Shown: one piece after another, positions 42,604 through 50,306 of the stretch | Position numbering within the stretch: the first letter of the stretch is position 1 | Layout of the letters: every line of letters begins with the position of its first letter | Origin: an uncultured Spirochaetales bacterium | GTDB taxonomy: Bacteria > Spirochaetota > Spirochaetia > JAFGDJ01 | NCBI GenBank assembly: GCA_964410865.1 | Contig: CAYPIQ010000006.1 | Span: 36,865-100,864 of the forward strand | Length of the DNA: 64,000 nt | Direction: 5' to 3' | The notes under the pieces: model-generated | The model's database searches: none | Told to the model about the DNA's origin: nothing | The model's input: the letters and a program-made list of their open reading frames with translations, nothing else | Made by a program: the position numbers and the translations under genes

Positions 42604-44274
42604 TTATTCCAGTGAAATTATGTAGAGAGAACTTTGCTGTCCACCGGAAACAGCCTCTACCCTCGCATGAGGATACAGTTTTTTTAAAAGAGCCTCGGCA
42701 GCGGTGTTTATACGTTTCCTGGTGTGCGAACCGTAGTAAATGGTGATTACATCGAATTGTCCCGATCTCAAGGAAGCAAGGGCTCTCCCGATGGTGTGAA
42801 CGGCACCGCTCTCCGCCGCAACCAGGGTACCGTCGAGAAAAGCCATGGTCTGACGATTTCTTATGCGTATGCCGTTGATGTGGGCGTACCGGGCGGCCCG
42901 GATGATCTCCAGGGTACGCACGGATGCTATCGAATTCCGCATAACCCTGATATTTTCTTCATATCCTGCTGATGTATCAAAGGAAATGAGGGCACAGACG
43001 CCCTGGGGTACCGATGCTGAAGGAATAACTGTTATATTCTTTTCGGTCAGGCTTTTCAGGTTTTCCGCAGCGGGGATAAGATCCGAATTATTGGGCAGGA
43101 TAATTACCCTGTTGGAAGGGACCGCATCTACAGCGTTGAGAAAATCGCCGGTGCTGGGATTCATTTTCGGGCTTACCAGAATAACCTGTGAAGCGCCCAG
43201 GGATTCAAAAACGTCACCGATGGGGGTTGCCGGAACAGCCGCAATTATGTCCACCGATTCGTCGGGGTATTCCCTTCTCCTGCGCGCCAGGAATTCTTTC
43301 TGCTGTTCGTCCATGTTCCGGACCGATACCTGATGCAGTGTTCCCCGACGGGCGGCAAAGGAGAGTACCCGGCCGGGATCGGCGGTATGGATATGTATCC
43401 TGACGGCTCCTGCATCACCGGCAACGATAATAGAAGAACCCTTCTTCCGCAATGATGCGCGCAGTTTATCCGGCCGTATGGAAACCTTTCCGGGTTTTCT
43501 CTTGAGAATAAATTCCGTACAGTAGCCGTATTTTGTATGGTTTAATATTGTTTTCTGGATAAACCGGACCGGCTGCAGTCTCCCCACAAAGGATGCTATT
43601 CTCCGACGTGTATTGGGGTCGTCCTTTTCCCGCAGGAATCTGAAGGCCCCATAGGTCAGGGTGTACAATCCCTGCCCCCCGGCATCCACTACACCTGCTT
43701 CCCGCAGTAAAGGTAGTAGATCCGGAGTACGGGAGACGGACCTTTCCGCGGTTGTAACGAGGATTTCAAATAATTCAAGTATGTCGTCCCTGCCCGATGC
43801 CGGAAACGATTCCGCGGCTGAAGCCATGTCGGAGACAACCGTGAGAATAGTACCTTCTACAGGATTACTGACTCCGCGATATGCTTCTTGCGATGCTTTT
43901 ATTGTCCCCCTGACGAAAACCCCTGCGTCCCACCGGTCGTTGCCCCGGCCGGCTTCGGCAAAACCGGTGAGGATCTGAGAGAGGATGACTCCGCTGTTAC
44001 CCCGGGCACCGTAGAGGGCGCCACGGGCAAGGGAATCGGCAATACCTCCGGCATCGTTTTTTGAATAATGTGCCAATTGTTCAAGCCCCGACTGTATGGT
44101 CAGGAGCATATTTGTGCCCGTATCTCCGTCGGGAACGGGAAAGACGTTCAGGGCGTCGATGGTGTCGGCGTTTGCTTTAAGCCACTCCGCCGCGGCGGCA
44201 AAGATCTCCCGGAGGTTATCTCCATCCACCTGGGACAGTACCGATCGGTTCTCCATACTCATCTCCTGTTCCAT
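42604..44274 (-). CDS. yloV: DAK2-domain fusion protein YloV
   Basis: The N-terminal Dak2 domain ('NVFPVPDGDTGTNM') and the C-terminal DegV-like/YloV region are present; the length is 556 aa. Confidence 0.85.
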   Translation of the reverse strand: MEQEMSMENRSVLSQVDGDNLREIFAAAAEWLKANADTIDALNVFPVPDGDTGTNMLLTIQSGLEQLAHYSKNDAGGIADSLARGALYGARGNSGVILSQILTGFAEAGRGNDRWDAGVFVRGTIKASQEAYRGVSNPVEGTILTVVSDMASAAESFPASGRDDILELFEILVTTAERSVSRTPDLLPLLREAGVVDAGGQGLYTLTYGAFRFLREKDDPNTRRRIASFVGRLQPVRFIQKTILNHTKYGYCTEFILKRKPGKVSIRPDKLRASLRKKGSSIIVAGDAGAVRIHIHTADPGRVLSFAARRGTLHQVSVRNMDEQQKEFLARRRREYPDESVDIIAAVPATPIGDVFESLGASQVILVSPKMNPSTGDFLNAVDAVPSNRVIILPNNSDLIPAAENLKSLTEKNITVIPSASVPQGVCALISFDTSAGYEENIRVMRNSIASVRTLEIIRAARYAHINGIRIRNRQTMAFLDGTLVAAESGAVHTIGRALASLRSGQFDVITIYYGSHTRKRINTAAEALLKKLYPHARVEAVSGGQQSSLYIISLE

Positions 44275-44372
44275 GGTAATGGTTTACACCGCGTTAGTCA
44301 AAGCCGAAATTTTCAGCTGCCAGTATGCGATGATAACGGGTTTTGAAATCCCGAGGCCCGGGTATTGAAATG

Positions 44373-44386
44373 TGCACTTAAGTGCA
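44373..44386. promoter_or_regulatory. Perfect 14-bp palindrome TGCACTTAAGTGCA in the -35/-10 spacer upstream of the first NifX-like gene
   Basis: It lies between TTGAAA (44364-44369) and TAAACT. A half-site 'TGCACTTAAGTT' recurs at 44839-44850 inside a TTGACA-N18-TATATT promoter upstream of the DUF134 gene. Confidence 0.5.
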
Positions 44387-44419
44387 TTAAACTCAATGAT
44401 GTATACACAATGGAAGTGA

Positions 44420-44833
44420 GTGAGGTATGTATGTATGGTTATCAGGGCGGCCTTTGCAACGGACGACGGTGAAAAATTCATAAACAGGCATTTTGGTGAT
44501 GCACGGTATTTCCGGTTGTACGAGATAGACGGACATGGGTACCGGTTTCTTCGACAGATTGAAAATTCCAGTGATGATGAGAGGGAAGGAGTACACGCGG
44601 ATCCGAAAAAGGCTCGAAGCGTGGCCGGGATACTCCTGAATGAAGGGGTGAATACCGTCGTATCACGGGTGTTCGGCCCCAATATTAAGCGAATTCGTAC
44701 AAAATTTGTCTGTATAGTTATGGACGATCTTTCTATTGAGACATCCGTAGATTTGATACAAAAGCACCGTGCCGACATCGAAGAGGAATGGAATAAGGGA
44801 GAAAGTCGAAAACATCTTAAGATTTCTTCTTGA
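44420..44833 (+). CDS. NifX/NafY-type dinitrogenase FeMo-cofactor-biosynthesis-domain protein (COG1433-like), copy 1
   Basis: The sequence 'IRAAFATDDGEKFINRHFGDARYFRLYEIDGHGYRFLRQIEN...' matches the NifB/NifX-family small-protein pattern; the length is 137 aa. Confidence 0.7.
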   Translation: MRYVCMVIRAAFATDDGEKFINRHFGDARYFRLYEIDGHGYRFLRQIENSSDDEREGVHADPKKARSVAGILLNEGVNTVVSRVFGPNIKRIRTKFVCIVMDDLSIETSVDLIQKHRADIEEEWNKGESRKHLKISS

Positions 44834-44885
44834 CATTATGCACTTAAGTTCAATATATTAGGATTGAAGGCACAGGGATGAATGT

Positions 44886-45344
44886 ATGCCGAGACCGCAG
44901 AAAGAAAGGATTGTAAGCAGACCACCTCTGTATTCGTCTTTCAAGCCCACCGGGGTGAGAAAAAACGAGCTAGGGCAAATTTCGCTTACCCTTGATGAAT
45001 ATGAAGCCATTCGTCTTGCGGATTATCTCCAGTTGGAGCACGAAGAGGCTTCTATTGAAATGGATATATCCCGCTCGACCTTTACAAGGCTTTTAGAAAG
45101 GGCGAGACAAAAGGTATCTGCGTTTATTATCGAAGGGAAGGAACTAAGTATCGAAGGCGGCCGCGTTCATTTCCGGGCAAATATCATGCGGTGTGCAGGG
45201 TGCGGGAATATATTCAGTGCCGGTTTCGAGCGTAATGTTACATCATGTCCGGCCTGCGGATCCCGGGATCTTGTAGATATGGCCGGTGGATACGGTCACG
45301 GAAGGTGTTGTCTTCAATTCAATATATCAAAGGAGAACAAATAG
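44886..45344 (+). CDS. DUF134 (UPF0251) predicted DNA-binding protein with a C-terminal CxxC...CxxC zinc ribbon
   Basis: 'MPRPQKERIV...FKPTGV...LTLDEYEAIRLADYLQLEHEEASIEMDISRSTFTRLLERARQKV' is the DUF134 hallmark, followed by 'CAGCGNIFSAGFERNVTSCPACG'. Confidence 0.8.
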   Translation: MPRPQKERIVSRPPLYSSFKPTGVRKNELGQISLTLDEYEAIRLADYLQLEHEEASIEMDISRSTFTRLLERARQKVSAFIIEGKELSIEGGRVHFRANIMRCAGCGNIFSAGFERNVTSCPACGSRDLVDMAGGYGHGRCCLQFNISKENK

Positions 45345-45346
45345 AT

Positions 45347-45607
45347 ATGCCCAGAGGAGACGGAACAGGGCCTGCGGGACAGGGACCCGGAACAGGGAAA
45401 GGATTGGGAAGAAAACCCGGAGGCGGAGGCCGGGGACGTCATAGCGGAGGTGCTTTTGGTCCCGGCGGAATGTGTATATGCGCGAAATGCGGGACTAAAA
45501 TTCCTCATCAACAGGGAACATCATGTACGGAACTAAAGTGTCCGAATTGCGGGCAAACCATGATTCGCGAAGAGTTGCTCGAAGAAAAAAGAAAGAGAAA
45601 AGAATGA
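45347..45607 (+). CDS. DUF5320-family small glycine-rich protein
   Basis: 'MPRGDGTGPAGQGPGTGKGLG...GGMCICAKCG...CPNCG' followed by a coiled-coil tail matches DUF5320; the ATG at 45347 follows RBS 'aaaggag', and the ORF-track 5' extension is rejected. Confidence 0.75.
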   Translation: MPRGDGTGPAGQGPGTGKGLGRKPGGGGRGRHSGGAFGPGGMCICAKCGTKIPHQQGTSCTELKCPNCGQTMIREELLEEKRKRKE

Positions 45608-46473
45608 AAATCGCCATTGCCAGCGGGAAGGGTGGTACAGGAAAAACCACCCTTTCGGTAAACCTGGCGGCGTATCTCGCGGAGACCCGGCCGGTTATAT
45701 TAACCGATCTCGATGTGGAGGAGCCGAACTCGGGACTTTTTCTCAAAAAGGGGAGAGCTGAATTCCGAAAAGATGTATTCAGGATGGTCCCGTCATGGAA
45801 ACAGTCATCCTGTACCCTCTGCGGATTATGCCAGGAGGTGTGTAACTTCAATTCGATAATAAAAATGGGGGACGAGGTAATGATATTCCCCGAACTCTGC
45901 CATGGATGTTACGCCTGCAGCGAGCTCTGTCCGACGGATTCACTCCCCATGGTTCCGGAAAAAATCGGTGAATTGGCGAGTTATACGGCAGGCGATATTT
46001 CTTTTATCGACAGCCGACTCGATATCGGGCAGGAACAGGCGGTACCGCTGATTGCCGAGACACTCTCCTACGTGGAAGATGAATTCCCCCGGGATGTCCT
46101 TAAAATATATGACGCTCCGCCGGGTACGTCCTGCCCTGTTATAGAAGCGGTAAAGGACGCGGATTTTATTCTGCTTGTAACCGAGCCAACCCCCTTCGGG
46201 CTTCACGATCTCCGGCTTGCCCTCGAGACGGTCAGGAGCCTGGGAAAAAGATGCGCGGTTGTGGTCAACAGGTACGGTCTCGGGAATGCCGATGTCGATG
46301 AATACTGCCGGCGGGAAGGTATCGACATCGTGGCGAAGCTGCCGAACAGGCGGCAGGTGGCGGAGCTTTATTCCCGGGGAAGGCTTGTCTACCCGGAGGT
46401 GCCGGAGATTGCCGCGGAGCTGGAAAATTTAGCTGCGTATATCGACGGGCTGGAAAAGGAGATGCGGGGATGA
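45604..46473 (+). CDS. MinD/ParA-superfamily P-loop ATPase with an inserted 2x[4Fe-4S] ferredoxin domain (COG1149-like), copy 1
   Basis: The deviant Walker A 'ASGKGGTGKTT' and the ferredoxin insert 'CTLCGLCQEVCNFNSI...CHGCYACSELCPTDS' are present; the start overlaps the upstream stop (ATGA). Confidence 0.85.
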   Translation: MKIAIASGKGGTGKTTLSVNLAAYLAETRPVILTDLDVEEPNSGLFLKKGRAEFRKDVFRMVPSWKQSSCTLCGLCQEVCNFNSIIKMGDEVMIFPELCHGCYACSELCPTDSLPMVPEKIGELASYTAGDISFIDSRLDIGQEQAVPLIAETLSYVEDEFPRDVLKIYDAPPGTSCPVIEAVKDADFILLVTEPTPFGLHDLRLALETVRSLGKRCAVVVNRYGLGNADVDEYCRREGIDIVAKLPNRRQVAELYSRGRLVYPEVPEIAAELENLAAYIDGLEKEMRG

Positions 46474-47357
46474 AAGAGATTGTCGTGATTTCCGGCAAAG
46501 GCGGAACCGGCAAAACCTCGGTGACGGCTTCTTTTTCAGTACTCGCAGGCCCCGAGGTGATAACCGCTGATTGTGATGTGGATGCGGCGGATATGCATCT
46601 GCTTTTACAGCCGGATTTCGCCGAAGCCCATGATTTCTTCAGCGGCCTGAAAGCCCGTATCGATGCTTTACAGTGTTCGGGCTGCGGGAGGTGTGCGGAG
46701 GTCTGTCGTTTCGGAGCCGTGGACCTAGTCGATGATGTGTATTCAGTCGTTTCCCTGGATTGTGAAGGCTGCGGATACTGCGCCCGGATCTGTCCGGAGA
46801 AGGCTATAGTTATGGAAGAGCAGAACGTCGGAGAGTGGTATCGGTCGTCCATTAAAACCGCCGGTATAATGATCCACGCTCGTCTCGGCATAGGCGCGGA
46901 CAATTCCGGAAAACTTGTAGCCAAGGTGAAAAACGAGGCAAAACGGGTAGCGGAAGAAACAGGTAAGAATATCGTCCTTGTAGACGGATCGCCGGGTATC
47001 GGATGCCCGGTGGTCTCCTCTCTTTCGGGGGCCGATTTTGTTGTATTTGTTACTGAACCGACGGTATCCGGTCTCCATGATGTTAAACGGGTTCATGAGG
47101 TGGTAAAGAACTTCGATATCCCTTCGGGATGCATCATAAATAAAGCCGATTTGAATCCGGAGATAACAGGGCAGTTGAAGGATTTTTTTGCCGAAGAAGG
47201 CATTGTCCATCTTGCCGACCTCCCCTATGACGAAAGCTTTACGGAAGCGATGGTCATGGGCCAAACGATTGTGGAATTCGCCGGCGGCAGACTCACCTCG
47301 GAGATCTCCGCATGCTGGCAGCGTATAAAAACTATAGTTCATACAAAAGGAGAATGA
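46470..47357 (+). CDS. MinD/ParA-superfamily P-loop ATPase with an inserted 2x[4Fe-4S] ferredoxin domain, copy 2
   Basis: 'ISGKGGTGKTS' with the insert 'CSGCGRCAEVCRFGAV...CEGCGYCARICPEKA'; the start overlaps the upstream stop (ATGA). Confidence 0.85.
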   Translation: MKEIVVISGKGGTGKTSVTASFSVLAGPEVITADCDVDAADMHLLLQPDFAEAHDFFSGLKARIDALQCSGCGRCAEVCRFGAVDLVDDVYSVVSLDCEGCGYCARICPEKAIVMEEQNVGEWYRSSIKTAGIMIHARLGIGADNSGKLVAKVKNEAKRVAEETGKNIVLVDGSPGIGCPVVSSLSGADFVVFVTEPTVSGLHDVKRVHEVVKNFDIPSGCIINKADLNPEITGQLKDFFAEEGIVHLADLPYDESFTEAMVMGQTIVEFAGGRLTSEISACWQRIKTIVHTKGE

Positions 47358-47360
47358 TAT

Positions 47361-47699
47361 ATGAGGATTGCTTTCACCAGTAAAGGCGCCGGGCCGGATT
47401 CAGCGATAGATCCGCGGTTCGGAAGAACGGAGTATATTCTACTCTACGATGAAGAGAAGGACGAGTATACTCCTGTGGATAACCGGGCGATAGGCGGGGT
47501 CGCCCACGGGGCCGGGCCTCAGACAGCCCAAAAATTGTTTGACCTCCAGCCGGATGTACTCATTACCGGCAATGGACCGGGGGGGAATGCAGCCGCCGCT
47601 CTGCAAAAGGCAAACCTGGATATATATACCGGAGCCGGGCAGATGACCGTTAAACAAGCCTATGATGCATATAAAAAAGGTGAACTGAAAAAGTTTTAG
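47361..47699 (+). CDS. NifX/NafY-type FeMo-cofactor-biosynthesis-domain protein, copy 2
   Basis: 'MRIAFTSKGAGPDSAIDPRFGRTEYILLYDEEKDEYTPVDNRA...LQPDVLITGNGPGGNA' matches the NifX-family pattern; it is 112 aa and starts 3 nt after the upstream stop. Confidence 0.75.
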   Translation: MRIAFTSKGAGPDSAIDPRFGRTEYILLYDEEKDEYTPVDNRAIGGVAHGAGPQTAQKLFDLQPDVLITGNGPGGNAAAALQKANLDIYTGAGQMTVKQAYDAYKKGELKKF

Positions 47700-47775
47700 T
47701 AGTTTCGTTAGACACGCCGGCGGCTTGACCGGCTGCCGGTATGTCGTTCCAGCGGTTGTAGAAGAGGAGGCTCCT

Positions 47776-48723
47776 GTGTATTCATATTTATTCGGTCCGG
47801 TCCCTTCCCGGCGCCTAGGCATGTCCCTCGGCGTTGATCTGGTTCCACACAAGGTATGCACCTTCAACTGTGTATACTGCGAGTGCGGCAGGACAACCCA
47901 TTTGACCAGGCAACGGGATGAATACGTTCCGGTTAATGCCGTGATGGAAGAATTGGGGCGGTTTTTTATCGATAATCCGAAACCGGATTATGTCACTTTT
48001 TCAGGAGCCGGTGAACCAACATTGAACTCCGGGATCGGTACGGTGCTCGACTTTATCAAAACCGAACACGAGGGTATGCCCGTGGCGGTGCTTACCAATG
48101 GAAGTCTGCTCTCGGATCCGGAAGTGCGGTCGGAGATCCTGGCTGCCGATGTTGTTCTGCCATCGCTGGATGCGGCTTCGGAGTCGACCTTCCGCAGGCT
48201 GGACAGACCAGTCCACAGTATCGTTCTGTCTGAGTACATTCAAGGCCTTGTTGATTTCAGGGAGGAATACGCGGGCAGAATATGGCTCGAGGTAATGATG
48301 CTGCCGGGTTATAACGACAACCCGGATGATCTCAGGTTACTGAAGGAAGCGTTTTTGAGAATACGGCCCGATCTTATACAGCTCAATACCCTTGACAGAC
48401 CCGGCACGGTGAAGGACCTCCGGCCTGCGTCACGGGAGGACCTGGAACGGATTATCGATACCTGGGCATTGGACAATGTAGAGATCATCGCCGCGGCGCC
48501 GGAACGAAAGAATATTCAGTCATACAGAAAAGATACGGAGACGGCGATCCTCGAGACCATTGCCAGGCGGCCCTGCACTCTCGAGGACCTCGGCAGTATT
48601 CTCGGCACCCATATTAACGAAGTCAATAAGTATCTCGGTGTTCTCGAGGAAGAAGGGAAAATAGAGACCCTGCGTCAGGAAAGAGGTGTGTTTTACCAGC
48701 TGAAAAAAAACCACCGGGCGTGA
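47776..48723 (+). CDS. Radical SAM protein with a C-terminal winged-helix-like tail
   Basis: The N-terminal 'YLFGPVPSRRLGMSLGVDL' is followed by 'CTFNCVYCECG' (CxxxCxxC); the GTG start at 47776 sits 6 nt after 'GAGGAGG', and the ORF-track 5' extension is rejected. Confidence 0.7.
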   Translation: MYSYLFGPVPSRRLGMSLGVDLVPHKVCTFNCVYCECGRTTHLTRQRDEYVPVNAVMEELGRFFIDNPKPDYVTFSGAGEPTLNSGIGTVLDFIKTEHEGMPVAVLTNGSLLSDPEVRSEILAADVVLPSLDAASESTFRRLDRPVHSIVLSEYIQGLVDFREEYAGRIWLEVMMLPGYNDNPDDLRLLKEAFLRIRPDLIQLNTLDRPGTVKDLRPASREDLERIIDTWALDNVEIIAAAPERKNIQSYRKDTETAILETIARRPCTLEDLGSILGTHINEVNKYLGVLEEEGKIETLRQERGVFYQLKKNHRA

Positions 48724-48761
48724 TGCACCGGCGGTTCCATCCAGGGGGGAATTTTTTCCGG

Positions 48762-49136
48762 TTAATGGTGGCCGTGGTCCCGTCCCGTTCCGTCACCCTT
48801 CCCCTCTCCGCGGACACAGGTGCTTTCTCCTGATTCCAAGGAGCCGTTGATATAGTCCTTTATTACCTGTTCTACGTCACCCTGCACGCCGGAAATACAT
48901 TCCATATTGTACTGCTGAAAGAAACCCTGGGCTCTCCGGCCCATCCCGCCGGTAATAATAACATTACAGCCGTTATTATGAAGAAACTCTGGGATAGCGC
49001 CGGGAGCGTGGCCGGGATTCGCCAGGATGTTTTTATTCGCCACGGTTGACCCTTCTATATCGAAGACCGTATATTCCGAACATCGTCCGAAATGCTCCGC
49101 TACACTGCCGTTTTCCGTTGCTATGGCAATTTTCAT
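48762..49136 (-). CDS. NifX/NafY-type FeMo-cofactor-biosynthesis-domain protein, copy 3 (convergent)
   Basis: 'MKIAIATENGSVAEHFGRCSEYTVFDIEG...GCNVIITGGMG' matches the NifX-family pattern; the start CAT at 49134-49136 has RBS GGAG, and the ORF-track N-terminal extension is a translation of repeat copy B. Confidence 0.75.
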   Translation of the reverse strand: MKIAIATENGSVAEHFGRCSEYTVFDIEGSTVANKNILANPGHAPGAIPEFLHNNGCNVIITGGMGRRAQGFFQQYNMECISGVQGDVEQVIKDYINGSLESGESTCVRGEGKGDGTGRDHGHH

Positions 49137-49149
49137 TTTCTTCTCCTGT

Positions 49150-49323
49150 ATGTACATATGATTCGCACGCGGGATCCATACCCCGCGGCTTGCCGCGCTC
49201 TTCGGAACCGAGCCGGCTGACTGCCTCGCCAATGGTTGCTGTACGGGGTATGAATCCCGCATACAATCCATACCTTGCAGAACCAACATACCCCCGCCCC
49301 TTGGCGCCGGGGTATGTTGATTA
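49150..49323 (+). repeat. Copy B of the roughly 165-nt structured repeat element
   Basis: It is near-identical to copy A with scattered substitutions and one indel. Confidence 0.85.
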
Positions 49324-49337
49324 TTAGTGACTATAAA

Positions 49338-50306
49338 TTACTTTAATTCGTCCTGCCGGGCAAGAATTGTCTGTAACCAGGTTATAAATTTTCCAACGAA
49401 GGACCACTGTATACGTTCTCTTGTTGTATGAACATCGAAAAGATTCGGGCCCATGGATACGGCTTCGATTCCGCCGGCTTTCGCGGAAAGAATACCGCAC
49501 TCCAGGCCTGCATGAACGGTTACAATTTCTACCGGTTCAGTAAAGATGCCCTCTCTGCAGCTCCGGCAGAGTGATACGAGGCGGGACCCAGGGGCGGGGG
49601 GCCAGGGAGGGTAGGTGGTTGTGTTGGAGACGTGCAGACCCGCGCGCCCGATGAGTTCCTTGATGTTCCTTTCGCCCTCGTCGAGTTCTTCCTGTTGATC
49701 CGAACGGAGGCTTATTTCCAGGTGGGTATTGTTCAGACCGTCGACCCTCAGGACACCGGGGTTGGCCGAGGTACTTACCTGGCCGCCCATCTCTTCATTT
49801 CTCCTCAGGACACCGGCCGGCAGATTCAGGATGAGGTCCGGCAGGGTTTTGAGGCCCTGGTCTGTAAGGGCTCCGACCCTGGCGGTATCTGTTTTTGTGA
49901 GTGATATCCGGGGGGTTGAATCGGGATTGGAATAGATATCGTTGAACTCTTTTTCGAAACGCCGGTAGAGTGGTAAGAGGAGCTTTTCCCCCTCCTCCGG
50001 TATAAAGAAGGTGACGGTGCAGTTGGTCGGGATTGCATTTATCTTTCCTTCGCCCTTAATATCGGTAACCGCAGGTTTCAAGTCGGAAAGACCGGAAAGA
50101 AAAGAAGCAAAGCGACGGTACAGATTCTCAGGACTTGTCCCGATATCCATGCCGGAATGGCCGCCTTTGAGCCCGTCGGCGGTTATATAGTCTCCCTCCC
50201 GCAAGGGGATGACGGGGTCTTTAGTAAAATCATGGGAAGAACCGGTATCTTTAACGCACACCATGTCCAGGTGTCCCTGAAGGATAACGGCGGGGGCATC
50301 TTCCAT
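49338..50306 (-). pseudogene. pepD: Aminoacyl-histidine dipeptidase (PepD, M20 family) remnant lacking the N-terminus and with a large internal deletion
   Basis: 'ILQGHLDMV...HDFTKDPV' and the C-terminal 'HAGLECGIL...SMGP...HTTRERI' match PepD, but roughly 130 aa between 'KDPV...' and 'LKGGHSG' are missing and the N-terminal roughly 70 aa are absent. Confidence 0.6.

Follow-up and report, generated by a model that had tools for sequence, protein, structure and literature searches.

Desulfovibrio vulgaris activates its orp operons by means of sigma-54, IHF and OrpR, a regulator whose PAS domain senses redox via a [4Fe-4S] cluster and which binds the sequence GGGCGYRTTTTGCGCCC (PMC8359166, PMC3897727). 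Here we describe a 64 kb stretch of DNA from an uncultured Spirochaetales bacterium (contig CAYPIQ010000006.1; the whole stretch is referred to as the window), in which an orp-like operon begins with a gene of the DUF134/UPF0251 family (COG1342, PF02001), for which the searchable literature contained no published function or functional study. A palindrome is found in the promoter of this operon as well as in that of the NifX-like gene preceding it, and we think it likely that DUF134 is an autorepressor with these palindromes as its operators, through which it would block its promoters. The mechanism as such, a repressor seated in a promoter spacer, is conventional.

The control predicted for this locus resembles that exerted by OrpR in that a dedicated local regulator with conserved cysteines would act at a palindrome placed before two transcription units. 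In contrast, OrpR, equipped with a PAS-[4Fe-4S] sensor, belongs to the sigma-54 enhancer-binding activators, works from a site far upstream and needs IHF, whereas the window has sigma-70-type promoters, a DUF134 protein of 152 amino acids (aa) and a site overlapping the promoter core in a repressor-like position. No match to the OrpR upstream activating sequence GGGCGYRTTTTGCGCCC was found in the window at up to three mismatches, nor was any sigma-54 −24/−12-like site present near 44300-44900, and control of the Desulfovibrio type was rejected as both elements are absent near the operon. On these comparisons, DUF134 looks like a non-orthologous replacement of the orp regulator.

Palindromic sites in the window and upstream of DUF134 genes

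Direct reading of 43800-45900 confirmed a perfect 14-bp palindrome that a previous sequence-only reading had reported at 44373-44386 between TTGAAA and TAAACT. This site, designated O1 (TGCACTTAAGTGCA, TGCAC-TTAA-GTGCA), fills the 17 bp spacer between the −35-like hexamer TTGAAA (44365-44370, + strand) of the NifX-like gene promoter, which reads TTGAC[A/T] at an equal offset from the operator in relatives, and the −10-like hexamer TAAACT (44388-44393, + strand), which starts 1 bp past O1 at the place where the family-wide flank matrix has a TATAWT-like hexamer. The same reading had located a second copy in the spacer of TTGACA-N18-TATATT and had called it a half-site; the location was correct, but the TGCACTTAAGTT segment (44839-44850) is part of a full operator, O2 (TGCACTTAAGTTCA, TGCAC-TTAA-GTTCA, 44839-44852), which is palindromic at 13/14 positions. 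O2 lies between TTGACA (44830-44835, + strand), which shares bases with the NifX-like stop codon, and TATATT (44854-44859, + strand), which begins 1 bp past O2 and likewise agrees with the flank matrix; the spacer is 18 bp. Promoters were called from consensus hexamers only, and the overlap of the operators with the −35/−10 core was judged by these calls. A generic promoter scan of 44000-49600 gave ten hits that included both hexamer pairs, that around O1 with 9/12 and that around O2 with 11/12 consensus matches, the latter being the best of the ten.

At one mismatch or less, the palindrome matched twice in the window, and none of 100 dinucleotide-preserving shuffles contained any match. At three mismatches or less, O1 and O2 were still the only matches in 64 kb, a count which by itself is not significant (2 observed versus 1.1 expected; 28/100 shuffles reached 2). 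With a weight matrix derived solely from 74 sites in other organisms, O2 scored 30.1 and O1 23.9, the next best score in the 64 kb being 6.2.

Two further motifs in this region were considered. An imperfect palindrome that shares the CTTAAG core, ACATCTTAAGATTT (44812-44825), is situated immediately ahead of the DUF134 −35 hexamer, within the final NifX-like codons; it is not conserved in the compared loci L162, L163 and L081 (L numbers designate the loci throughout) and is probably due to chance. The sequence-only reading had also drawn attention to TTCAATATAT, which follows the second palindrome and recurs before the DUF5320 gene. The recurrence is real (45318-45327), but a regulatory role is unsupported: the repeat lies inside the last DUF134 codons (LQFNISKENK), this coding tail is not conserved in L001-L003, a left arm is missing, and this 1.4 kb stretch contains further, unrelated repeated 10-mers (TATTGAAATG, GAAAGGATTG and CGGAACAGGG). 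The copy at 45318-45327 was thus rejected as an operator or promoter element, the repeat probably being fortuitous.

Scanning one genome per species yielded 80 loci with DUF134 relatives, and a few kb around each was searched; a second, independent set consisted of 80 metagenome loci. Overall, ∼170 related loci were compared. The closest relatives in the genome set, with 71% identity to the DUF134 protein of the window, came from uncultured Spirochaetes. In this set, the pattern TG[A/C]AC-N4-GT[G/T]CA gave 44 matches in the 10.3 kb situated at −130 to −14 of the DUF134 starts, distributed over 34 loci of Spirochaetes, Cloacimonadota, Bacteroidota, Neomarinimicrobiota/Fidelibacterota, Aminicenantes and others, as against a single match in the other 563 kb (density ratio ∼2400). 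A slightly looser pattern applied to the metagenome set found 47 matches in 9.5 kb of upstream sequence versus 6 in 313 kb elsewhere. Likewise, a palindrome detector that is agnostic to operator class was positive for 89 of 126 non-identical 100-nt upstream regions compared with 20 of 6970 control windows. Between this detector and the TG[A/C]AC-N4-GT[G/T]CA pattern in the genome set, the positional enrichment amounts to roughly 250- to 2400-fold. Lack of positional bias, which the sequence-only reading had named as the outcome that would speak against its proposal, was therefore not observed; the motif is strongly biased to the region upstream of DUF134 genes, across phyla and in two collections. 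No recognisable palindrome was seen within 140 nt upstream of DUF134 in L005, L010, L016, L027, L045, L047 and L064, and some palindrome-less DUF134 genes may occupy an intra-operon position or have a diverged site.

In most loci, DUF134 is the first gene of an array of the type DUF134-(DUF5320)-(NifX)-MinD/Fer-MinD/Fer-NifX-(radical SAM), and synteny across loci showed DUF134 to be the only constant neighbour of the operator site. No further operator copies were detected elsewhere in the compared loci, except before NifX-like genes and inside the DUF134 coding sequence. The latter concern the operator-like TGGACATATGTTCA at +317 in the gene (L006:4318, L012:4318, L087:3318, L089:1315 and L096:3318), which is probably a by-product of coding for the conserved zinc-ribbon peptide C-G-H-M-F; the DUF134 protein of the window reads CGNIF there and its gene lacks TGGACATATGTTCA.

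Contigs with DUF134 proteins 73-79% identical to that of the window were used for footprinting. In L162, L164 and L169, a 132-aa NifX-like ortholog precedes DUF134 and is itself preceded by TTGAC[A/T]-N2-3-TGCAC-N4-GT[G/T]CA, with a second copy before DUF134; the same NifX-like gene was called in L161, and both operators are retained in L162, L164, L167 and L169. The 14-mer of O2 recurs without change at the same place in L081, L162 and L163. An extra NifX-like gene with its own operator before DUF134, an unusual feature of the window, is thus kept in its relatives. These close relatives share invariant arms, whereas their intergenic flanks diverge and the 4-bp centre takes several forms (TTAA, TTAT, ATAG, ATAA, ATAT). 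The genes further upstream, which in the window are divergently transcribed fakA and degV genes, differ between loci, indicating that O1 is to be assigned to the NifX-like gene rather than to fakA. In L167, a 73%-identical relative, an operator (1087-1100) stands before a NifX-like gene and a gene for a 463-aa pyridine-nucleotide-disulfide oxidoreductase (Pyr_redox_2 plus dimerisation domain; genes at 1142-2940), a pair located upstream of DUF134, which hints that the regulon could include an enzyme of the disulfide, coenzyme A-disulfide or sulfur reductase type. L081, the closest metagenome relative, has a stop after DUF134 codon 6 (MPRPQK*, 466-486) even though homology runs to residue 150, and this early stop represents a frameshift, an assembly error or a pseudogene.

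Alignment of the 74 non-identical sites with their flanks showed that a TTG[A/C]-type −35 element ends 2-3 bp before the operator and that a TATAWT −10 element begins 1 bp beyond. Blautia and Selenomonadales have the site just downstream of a TATAAT −10 element. Two tandem operators, 26 bp apart from start to start, occupy −58 to −27 of DUF134 in Neomarinimicrobiota/Fidelibacterota (L029-L043, L106-L122); the first is located in the −35/−10 spacer and is consistently asymmetric (TGAAC...GTGCA), and the second follows the −10 element. Judged from the predicted promoters, all observed operator positions would obstruct RNA polymerase, as is typical of repressors. Furthermore, conservation of asymmetric sites like TGAAC...GTGCA is not accompanied by compensatory change, which fits recognition of the DNA by a protein and not a hairpin.

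The DUF134 protein and covariation with its proposed operator

The DUF134 gene (44886-45344, + strand) encodes the proposed autorepressor of 152 aa, whose residues 3-94 match Pfam PF02001 with 79.4 bits versus a cut-off of 27. The protein contains a conserved N-terminal arm (PRPxKxR...PP...FKPxG), a helix-turn-helix (HTH) resembling sigma-70 region 4 (residues ∼36-83), and a C-terminal CxxC...CxxC ribbon with an H-x2-CC tail. Pfam additionally gave a sub-threshold match to Sigma70_r4_2, and NCBIfam offered only a sub-threshold 'hypothetical protein' model. Within the HTH core LTLDEYEAIRL...SR.T, which is conserved across all 80 genome loci, 68 close relatives show no variation at residues D37, E38, E40, A41, R43, L44, D46, S62, R63, T65, F66 and R68, and the same holds for C103, C106, C121, C124, H138, C141 and C142 of the C-terminal module. 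Clades lacking this module carry cysteines in the N-terminal part instead, for example in RPKCCR and RCRRIC motifs. Members of the family occur in several phyla of bacteria and in at least one archaeon, and their hosts all appear to be anaerobes.

An AF2 model of the protein (mean pLDDT 76.7, and >88 over the HTH) predicts a three-helix HTH with short flanking strands, a zinc-ribbon-like beta module and a tail of low confidence. Using Foldseek, the HTH (∼46-50 residues) could be superimposed at 0.6-1.3 Å with a probability of ∼1.0 on 3VFZ, 2H27, 5FGM and 7BHY/8R7Y, i.e. on region 4 of extracytoplasmic function (ECF) sigma factors, including SigE region 4 on −35 DNA, and on the Bacillus subtilis DeoR DNA-binding domain on its operator. 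These matches to the PDB were confined to the local HTH and zinc-ribbon, no full-length DUF134 relative being found, and a sequence search against the PDB gave nothing significant. The likeness to the −35-binding domain of sigma factors and to the N-terminal domain of DeoR thus lies in the HTH superposition; DUF134 differs from these proteins in having neither sigma regions 2 or 3 nor a SorC-type effector domain, and in possessing its own N-terminal arm and Cys4/HxxCC module.

DUF134 of Blautia and Anaerovibrio forms an in-frame fusion with a Nitro_FeMo-Co domain, an argument for joint action of a NifX-like cluster-binding domain and the DNA-binding domain. Fused loci encode proteins of ∼258-270 aa (L066:4001-4774, L061:4001-4786, and also L068, L070, L072-L077 and L079, from Selenomonadales or Clostridiales), and in the fused loci the operator TCGACATATGTCGA sits after the −10 element.

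At the corresponding position, DUF134 clades further removed from that of the window have variant palindromes, accompanied by changes in the recognition helix. The clade of the window combines TG[C/A]AC arms with the helix SR[S/P]TF[T/S]R; the Syntrophia-type clade combines TGAGCATATGCT[T/C]A or TGGGCATATGCCCA (G[A/G]GC arms) with SRQTFGR; Blautia and Selenomonadales have TCGACATATGTCGA (CGAC arms) with SR[T/S]TVTE; and the altiarchaeal locus has TGAATATATATTCA (GAAT arms) with SQPTFHR. A comparison less confounded than that between classes is offered by the residue following the invariant Ser62-Arg63, which is either Ser or Pro, both of which occur within Spirochaetes. Within the clade of the window, Ser goes with C and Pro with A at arm position 3, TGCAC arms making up 32/48 with Ser versus 16/74 with Pro (Fisher p about 1e-6). 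When each Ser protein was paired with its closest Pro relative, the fraction of C arms was higher with Ser in 21 pairs, tied in 2 and reversed in 1. The window, with Ser64 and TGCAC arms, conforms to this pattern. The residue after the invariant Ser-Arg may select base 3 of the half-site, a partial recognition rule that is testable.

Proposed autorepression and competing explanations

Taken with the positional bias, the footprint in close relatives and the promoter geometry, this covariation supports the proposal of the sequence-only reading that a shared operator in the promoter spacers serves autoregulation by DUF134. We envisage a DUF134 dimer placing two sigma-region-4-like HTHs on the 5-bp arms TGCAC / GT[G/T]CA, whose centres are 9 bp apart, while the AT-rich 4-bp centre between them would not be read specifically. 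Each operator takes up the 17-18 bp spacer that separates a good −35 from a −10 element, so that DUF134, when bound, would deny sigma-70 RNA polymerase access to the promoter, resulting in negative autoregulation of two units, namely the upstream NifX-like gene and DUF134-DUF5320-two MinD/ferredoxin ATPases-orange protein (ORP)-like NifX-radical SAM. Derepression would probably occur via a signal related to a metal or to iron-sulfur (Fe-S) species, which is speculative, and this signal might be read by the C-terminal Cys4 and His-Cys-Cys module, by the NifX-like cluster-binding partner, or by both.

A comparable arrangement is known from IscR and NsrR of the Rrf2 family and from Fur/PerR, which are cluster- or metal-sensing autorepressors with promoter-overlapping palindromes. 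DUF134 shares with them the small size of an HTH protein (presumably dimeric in its case), conserved cysteines, a position as first gene of an Fe-S-related operon and an operator overlapping −35/−10. It differs from them in showing no sequence relationship, in a sigma-region-4-like instead of a winged-helix fold and in its operator sequence, and cofactor binding by DUF134 is conjectural.

Several points weigh against this interpretation. That the Cys module binds a metal or cluster is conjecture, and it may equally well be a zinc ribbon of purely structural function. No experiments on DNA binding, transcription starts or expression were found for any DUF134 protein in the searchable literature. 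The scans spanned 64 kb and a few kb per homolog, which leaves room for more genomic sites, a larger regulon or another global regulator. About 29% of the non-identical upstream regions have no palindrome in the strict class-agnostic test, many of them showing imperfect copies by eye. The covariation between operator classes and recognition helices is confounded with phylogeny, each class being essentially one clade, and the Ser/Pro pairs are not fully independent. Finally, the GAAC-N4-GTTC variant of the site resembles the Gram-positive LexA box.

MerR-family activators bind palindromes between −35 and −10, their promoters typically having over-long spacers of 19-20 bp. This precedent, and the similarity of the DUF134 HTH to sigma region 4, which normally contacts RNA polymerase and −35 DNA, would be compatible with DUF134 binding the palindrome as an activator or dual regulator by MerR-like spacer remodelling or by recruitment of RNA polymerase; the known orp regulator, OrpR, is an activator as well (PMC8359166). 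We nevertheless regard activation as improbable. The spacers in the window measure 17-18 bp and not the 19-20 bp of the MerR type, the hexamers are so close to consensus (TTGACA/TATATT, 11/12) that no activator seems needed, and in Firmicutes the site, as in Neomarinimicrobiota its second copy, is situated past the −10 element, from where activation is unlikely.

It also appears quite unlikely that the palindrome is functional but bound by another regulator, such as a LexA-, Rex- or Fur/PerR-like global factor having the DUF134 operon as one of its targets. The Bacillus-type LexA 'Cheo' box is CGAACATATGTTCG (CGAAC-N4-GTTCG), from which the variant TGAACATATGTTCA, common in Neomarinimicrobiota and in some Spirochaetes, differs only in the outermost bases; DUF134 operators share with this box the 14-bp palindrome, the 5-bp arms, a 4-bp AT-rich centre (often ATAT), the overlap with the promoter and, in some cases, a GAAC/GTTC core. 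Moreover, only small parts of each genome were scanned, and binding by DUF134 itself is deduced from sequence comparison. However, O1 differs at 4/10 and O2 at 3/10 of the specified positions of CGAAC-N4-GTTCG, with no match at one mismatch or less, and DUF134 operators have outer T...A instead of C...G and are confined to DUF134 promoters. Their arms shift to GAGC, GGGC, CGAC or GAAT with the DUF134 clade and its recognition helix and not with host taxonomy; Firmicutes, which use the Cheo box, carry TCGACATATGTCGA here, and such a site also precedes the archaeal DUF134 gene (L078), whereas archaea, to our knowledge, lack LexA. A LexA box was therefore rejected on account of the GCAC arms of the window, the clade-tracking arms, the CGAC arms of Firmicutes and the archaeal site. 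A Rex box (consensus TGTGAA-N4-TTCACA) was rejected because the half-site spacing differs, with N4 versus N6 between TGAA and TTCA. Furthermore, the site is essentially absent from ∼880 kb of flanking DNA elsewhere, and the covariation of Ser/Pro with C/A involves DUF134 itself.

An origin of the palindromes by chance or as a structural feature, without a regulatory protein (spacer preference, cruciform or RNA hairpin), with which the non-significant count at three mismatches in the window alone would agree, has a negligible probability and appears effectively refuted by the comparative data, given the lack of shuffle matches at one mismatch, the enrichment across loci, the arms conserved against diverging flanks and the asymmetric arms kept without compensation. 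An RNA element in particular was rejected, as a covariance-model search of 44000-45700 against Rfam 15 gave no match at E ≤ 1, O1 lies upstream of its own −10 hexamer and is thus not transcribed from that promoter, and compensatory changes are absent.

Genes under the proposed operators and comparison with orp

The first gene of the predicted regulon is the NifX-like gene downstream of O1 (44435-44833, + strand), which encodes a 132-aa protein with a Nitro_FeMo-Co domain (Pfam PF02579, 41.6 bits versus a cut-off of 26.3). DUF134 is followed by a gene for a small Gly-rich and Cys-rich DUF5320 protein (45347-45607, + strand; Pfam PF17253), which is located downstream of DUF134 in many loci. Its N-terminal half is glycine-rich and cationic (GPGTGKGLGRKPGGGGRGRHSGG) and is followed by CxCxxC...CxxC; this stretch is reminiscent of the tail with which IssA binds thioferrate and which is likewise Gly-rich and cationic (PMC5524996). 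DUF5320 may also correspond to Orp5, a small [2Fe-2S] protein encoded in the ORP operon (PMC6345978, its reference 23).

Next in the operon are two paralogous genes for MinD/CbiA P-loop ATPases with an inserted 2x[4Fe-4S] ferredoxin domain (45604-46473 and 46470-47357, both + strand), which were assigned as Orp3/Orp4-like from Pfam and synteny. Orp3 and Orp4 have been described as MinD-like ATPases with ferredoxin motifs (PMC6345978), and comparison of the Pfam architecture with that description showed the window to have such a pair, each member with two [4Fe-4S] ferredoxin motifs. The following gene (47361-47699, + strand; Pfam PF02579) encodes a NifX-like protein homologous to the orange protein of Desulfovibrio gigas, of which it matches the entry 2WFB ('ORP') by phmmer with E = 1e-11 over residues 2-109 of 112; it represents a single Di-Nase/NifX-like orange protein of the Orp8 type. 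A radical S-adenosylmethionine (SAM) protein gene (47725-48723, + strand; Pfam PF04055), whose start codon is uncertain, is probably the last gene of the operon and has the same position in L001, L002 and L166.

Convergent to the operon is a third NifX-like gene (48762-49136, − strand), upstream of which (49137-49340) no operator-like site was found, matrix scores in the window outside O1 and O2 being at most 6.2. Its product resembles MrpORP's Di-Nase domain and matches positions 265-365 of model NF041136 with 103.8 bits versus a cut-off of 450; MrpORP itself (Orp9), a fusion of an Mrp/NBP35 P-loop and a Di-Nase domain, was not found, and only this stand-alone Di-Nase-like protein is present. 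The resemblance to the orp genes of D. vulgaris Hildenborough thus comprises the two MinD-like 2x[4Fe-4S] ATPases, an orange-protein-type NifX/Di-Nase protein, a small Cys-rich protein and, nearby, the protein resembling MrpORP's Di-Nase domain. Based on the match to 2WFB and the Orp3/Orp4-like architecture of the ATPases, the controlled operon is, as far as gene content can tell, orp-like, i.e. an orange-protein-type Fe-S cluster operon of anaerobes.

Domains of the NifX family serve as binding sites for Fe-S or metal-sulfide species, as described for thioferrate in IssA (PMC5524996) and a [3Fe-4S] cluster in MrpORP. This property, together with the redox sensing of OrpR, makes an Fe-S or redox signal plausible for DUF134, although by analogy only. 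A more far-reaching proposal, which we put forward tentatively and hold to be less probable than autorepression itself, is that DUF134/UPF0251 could be the first example of a family of cofactor-sensing repressors that read Fe-S/metal-sulfide status or redox via their own invariant Cys/His module, via a NifX-like domain in trans (as in the window) or fused (as in Firmicutes), or via both, and that thereby set the level of the ORP machinery as a sigma-70 counterpart of OrpR, with the residue after Ser-Arg selecting base 3.

DUF134/UPF0251 is widespread in mostly uncultured, apparently anaerobic bacteria and in some archaea, and for this family the present analysis provides a DNA target, T-G-N-N-C-(A/T)4-G-N-N-C-A, a likely role as local autorepressor at orp-type Fe-S operons and a putative recognition rule. 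The regulation of orp genes has been studied only in Desulfovibrio, with its sigma-54/OrpR system, and we predict that in many other lineages control is exerted by an unrelated small regulator. If a ligand of DUF134 were found, it could reveal what the ORP machinery responds to.

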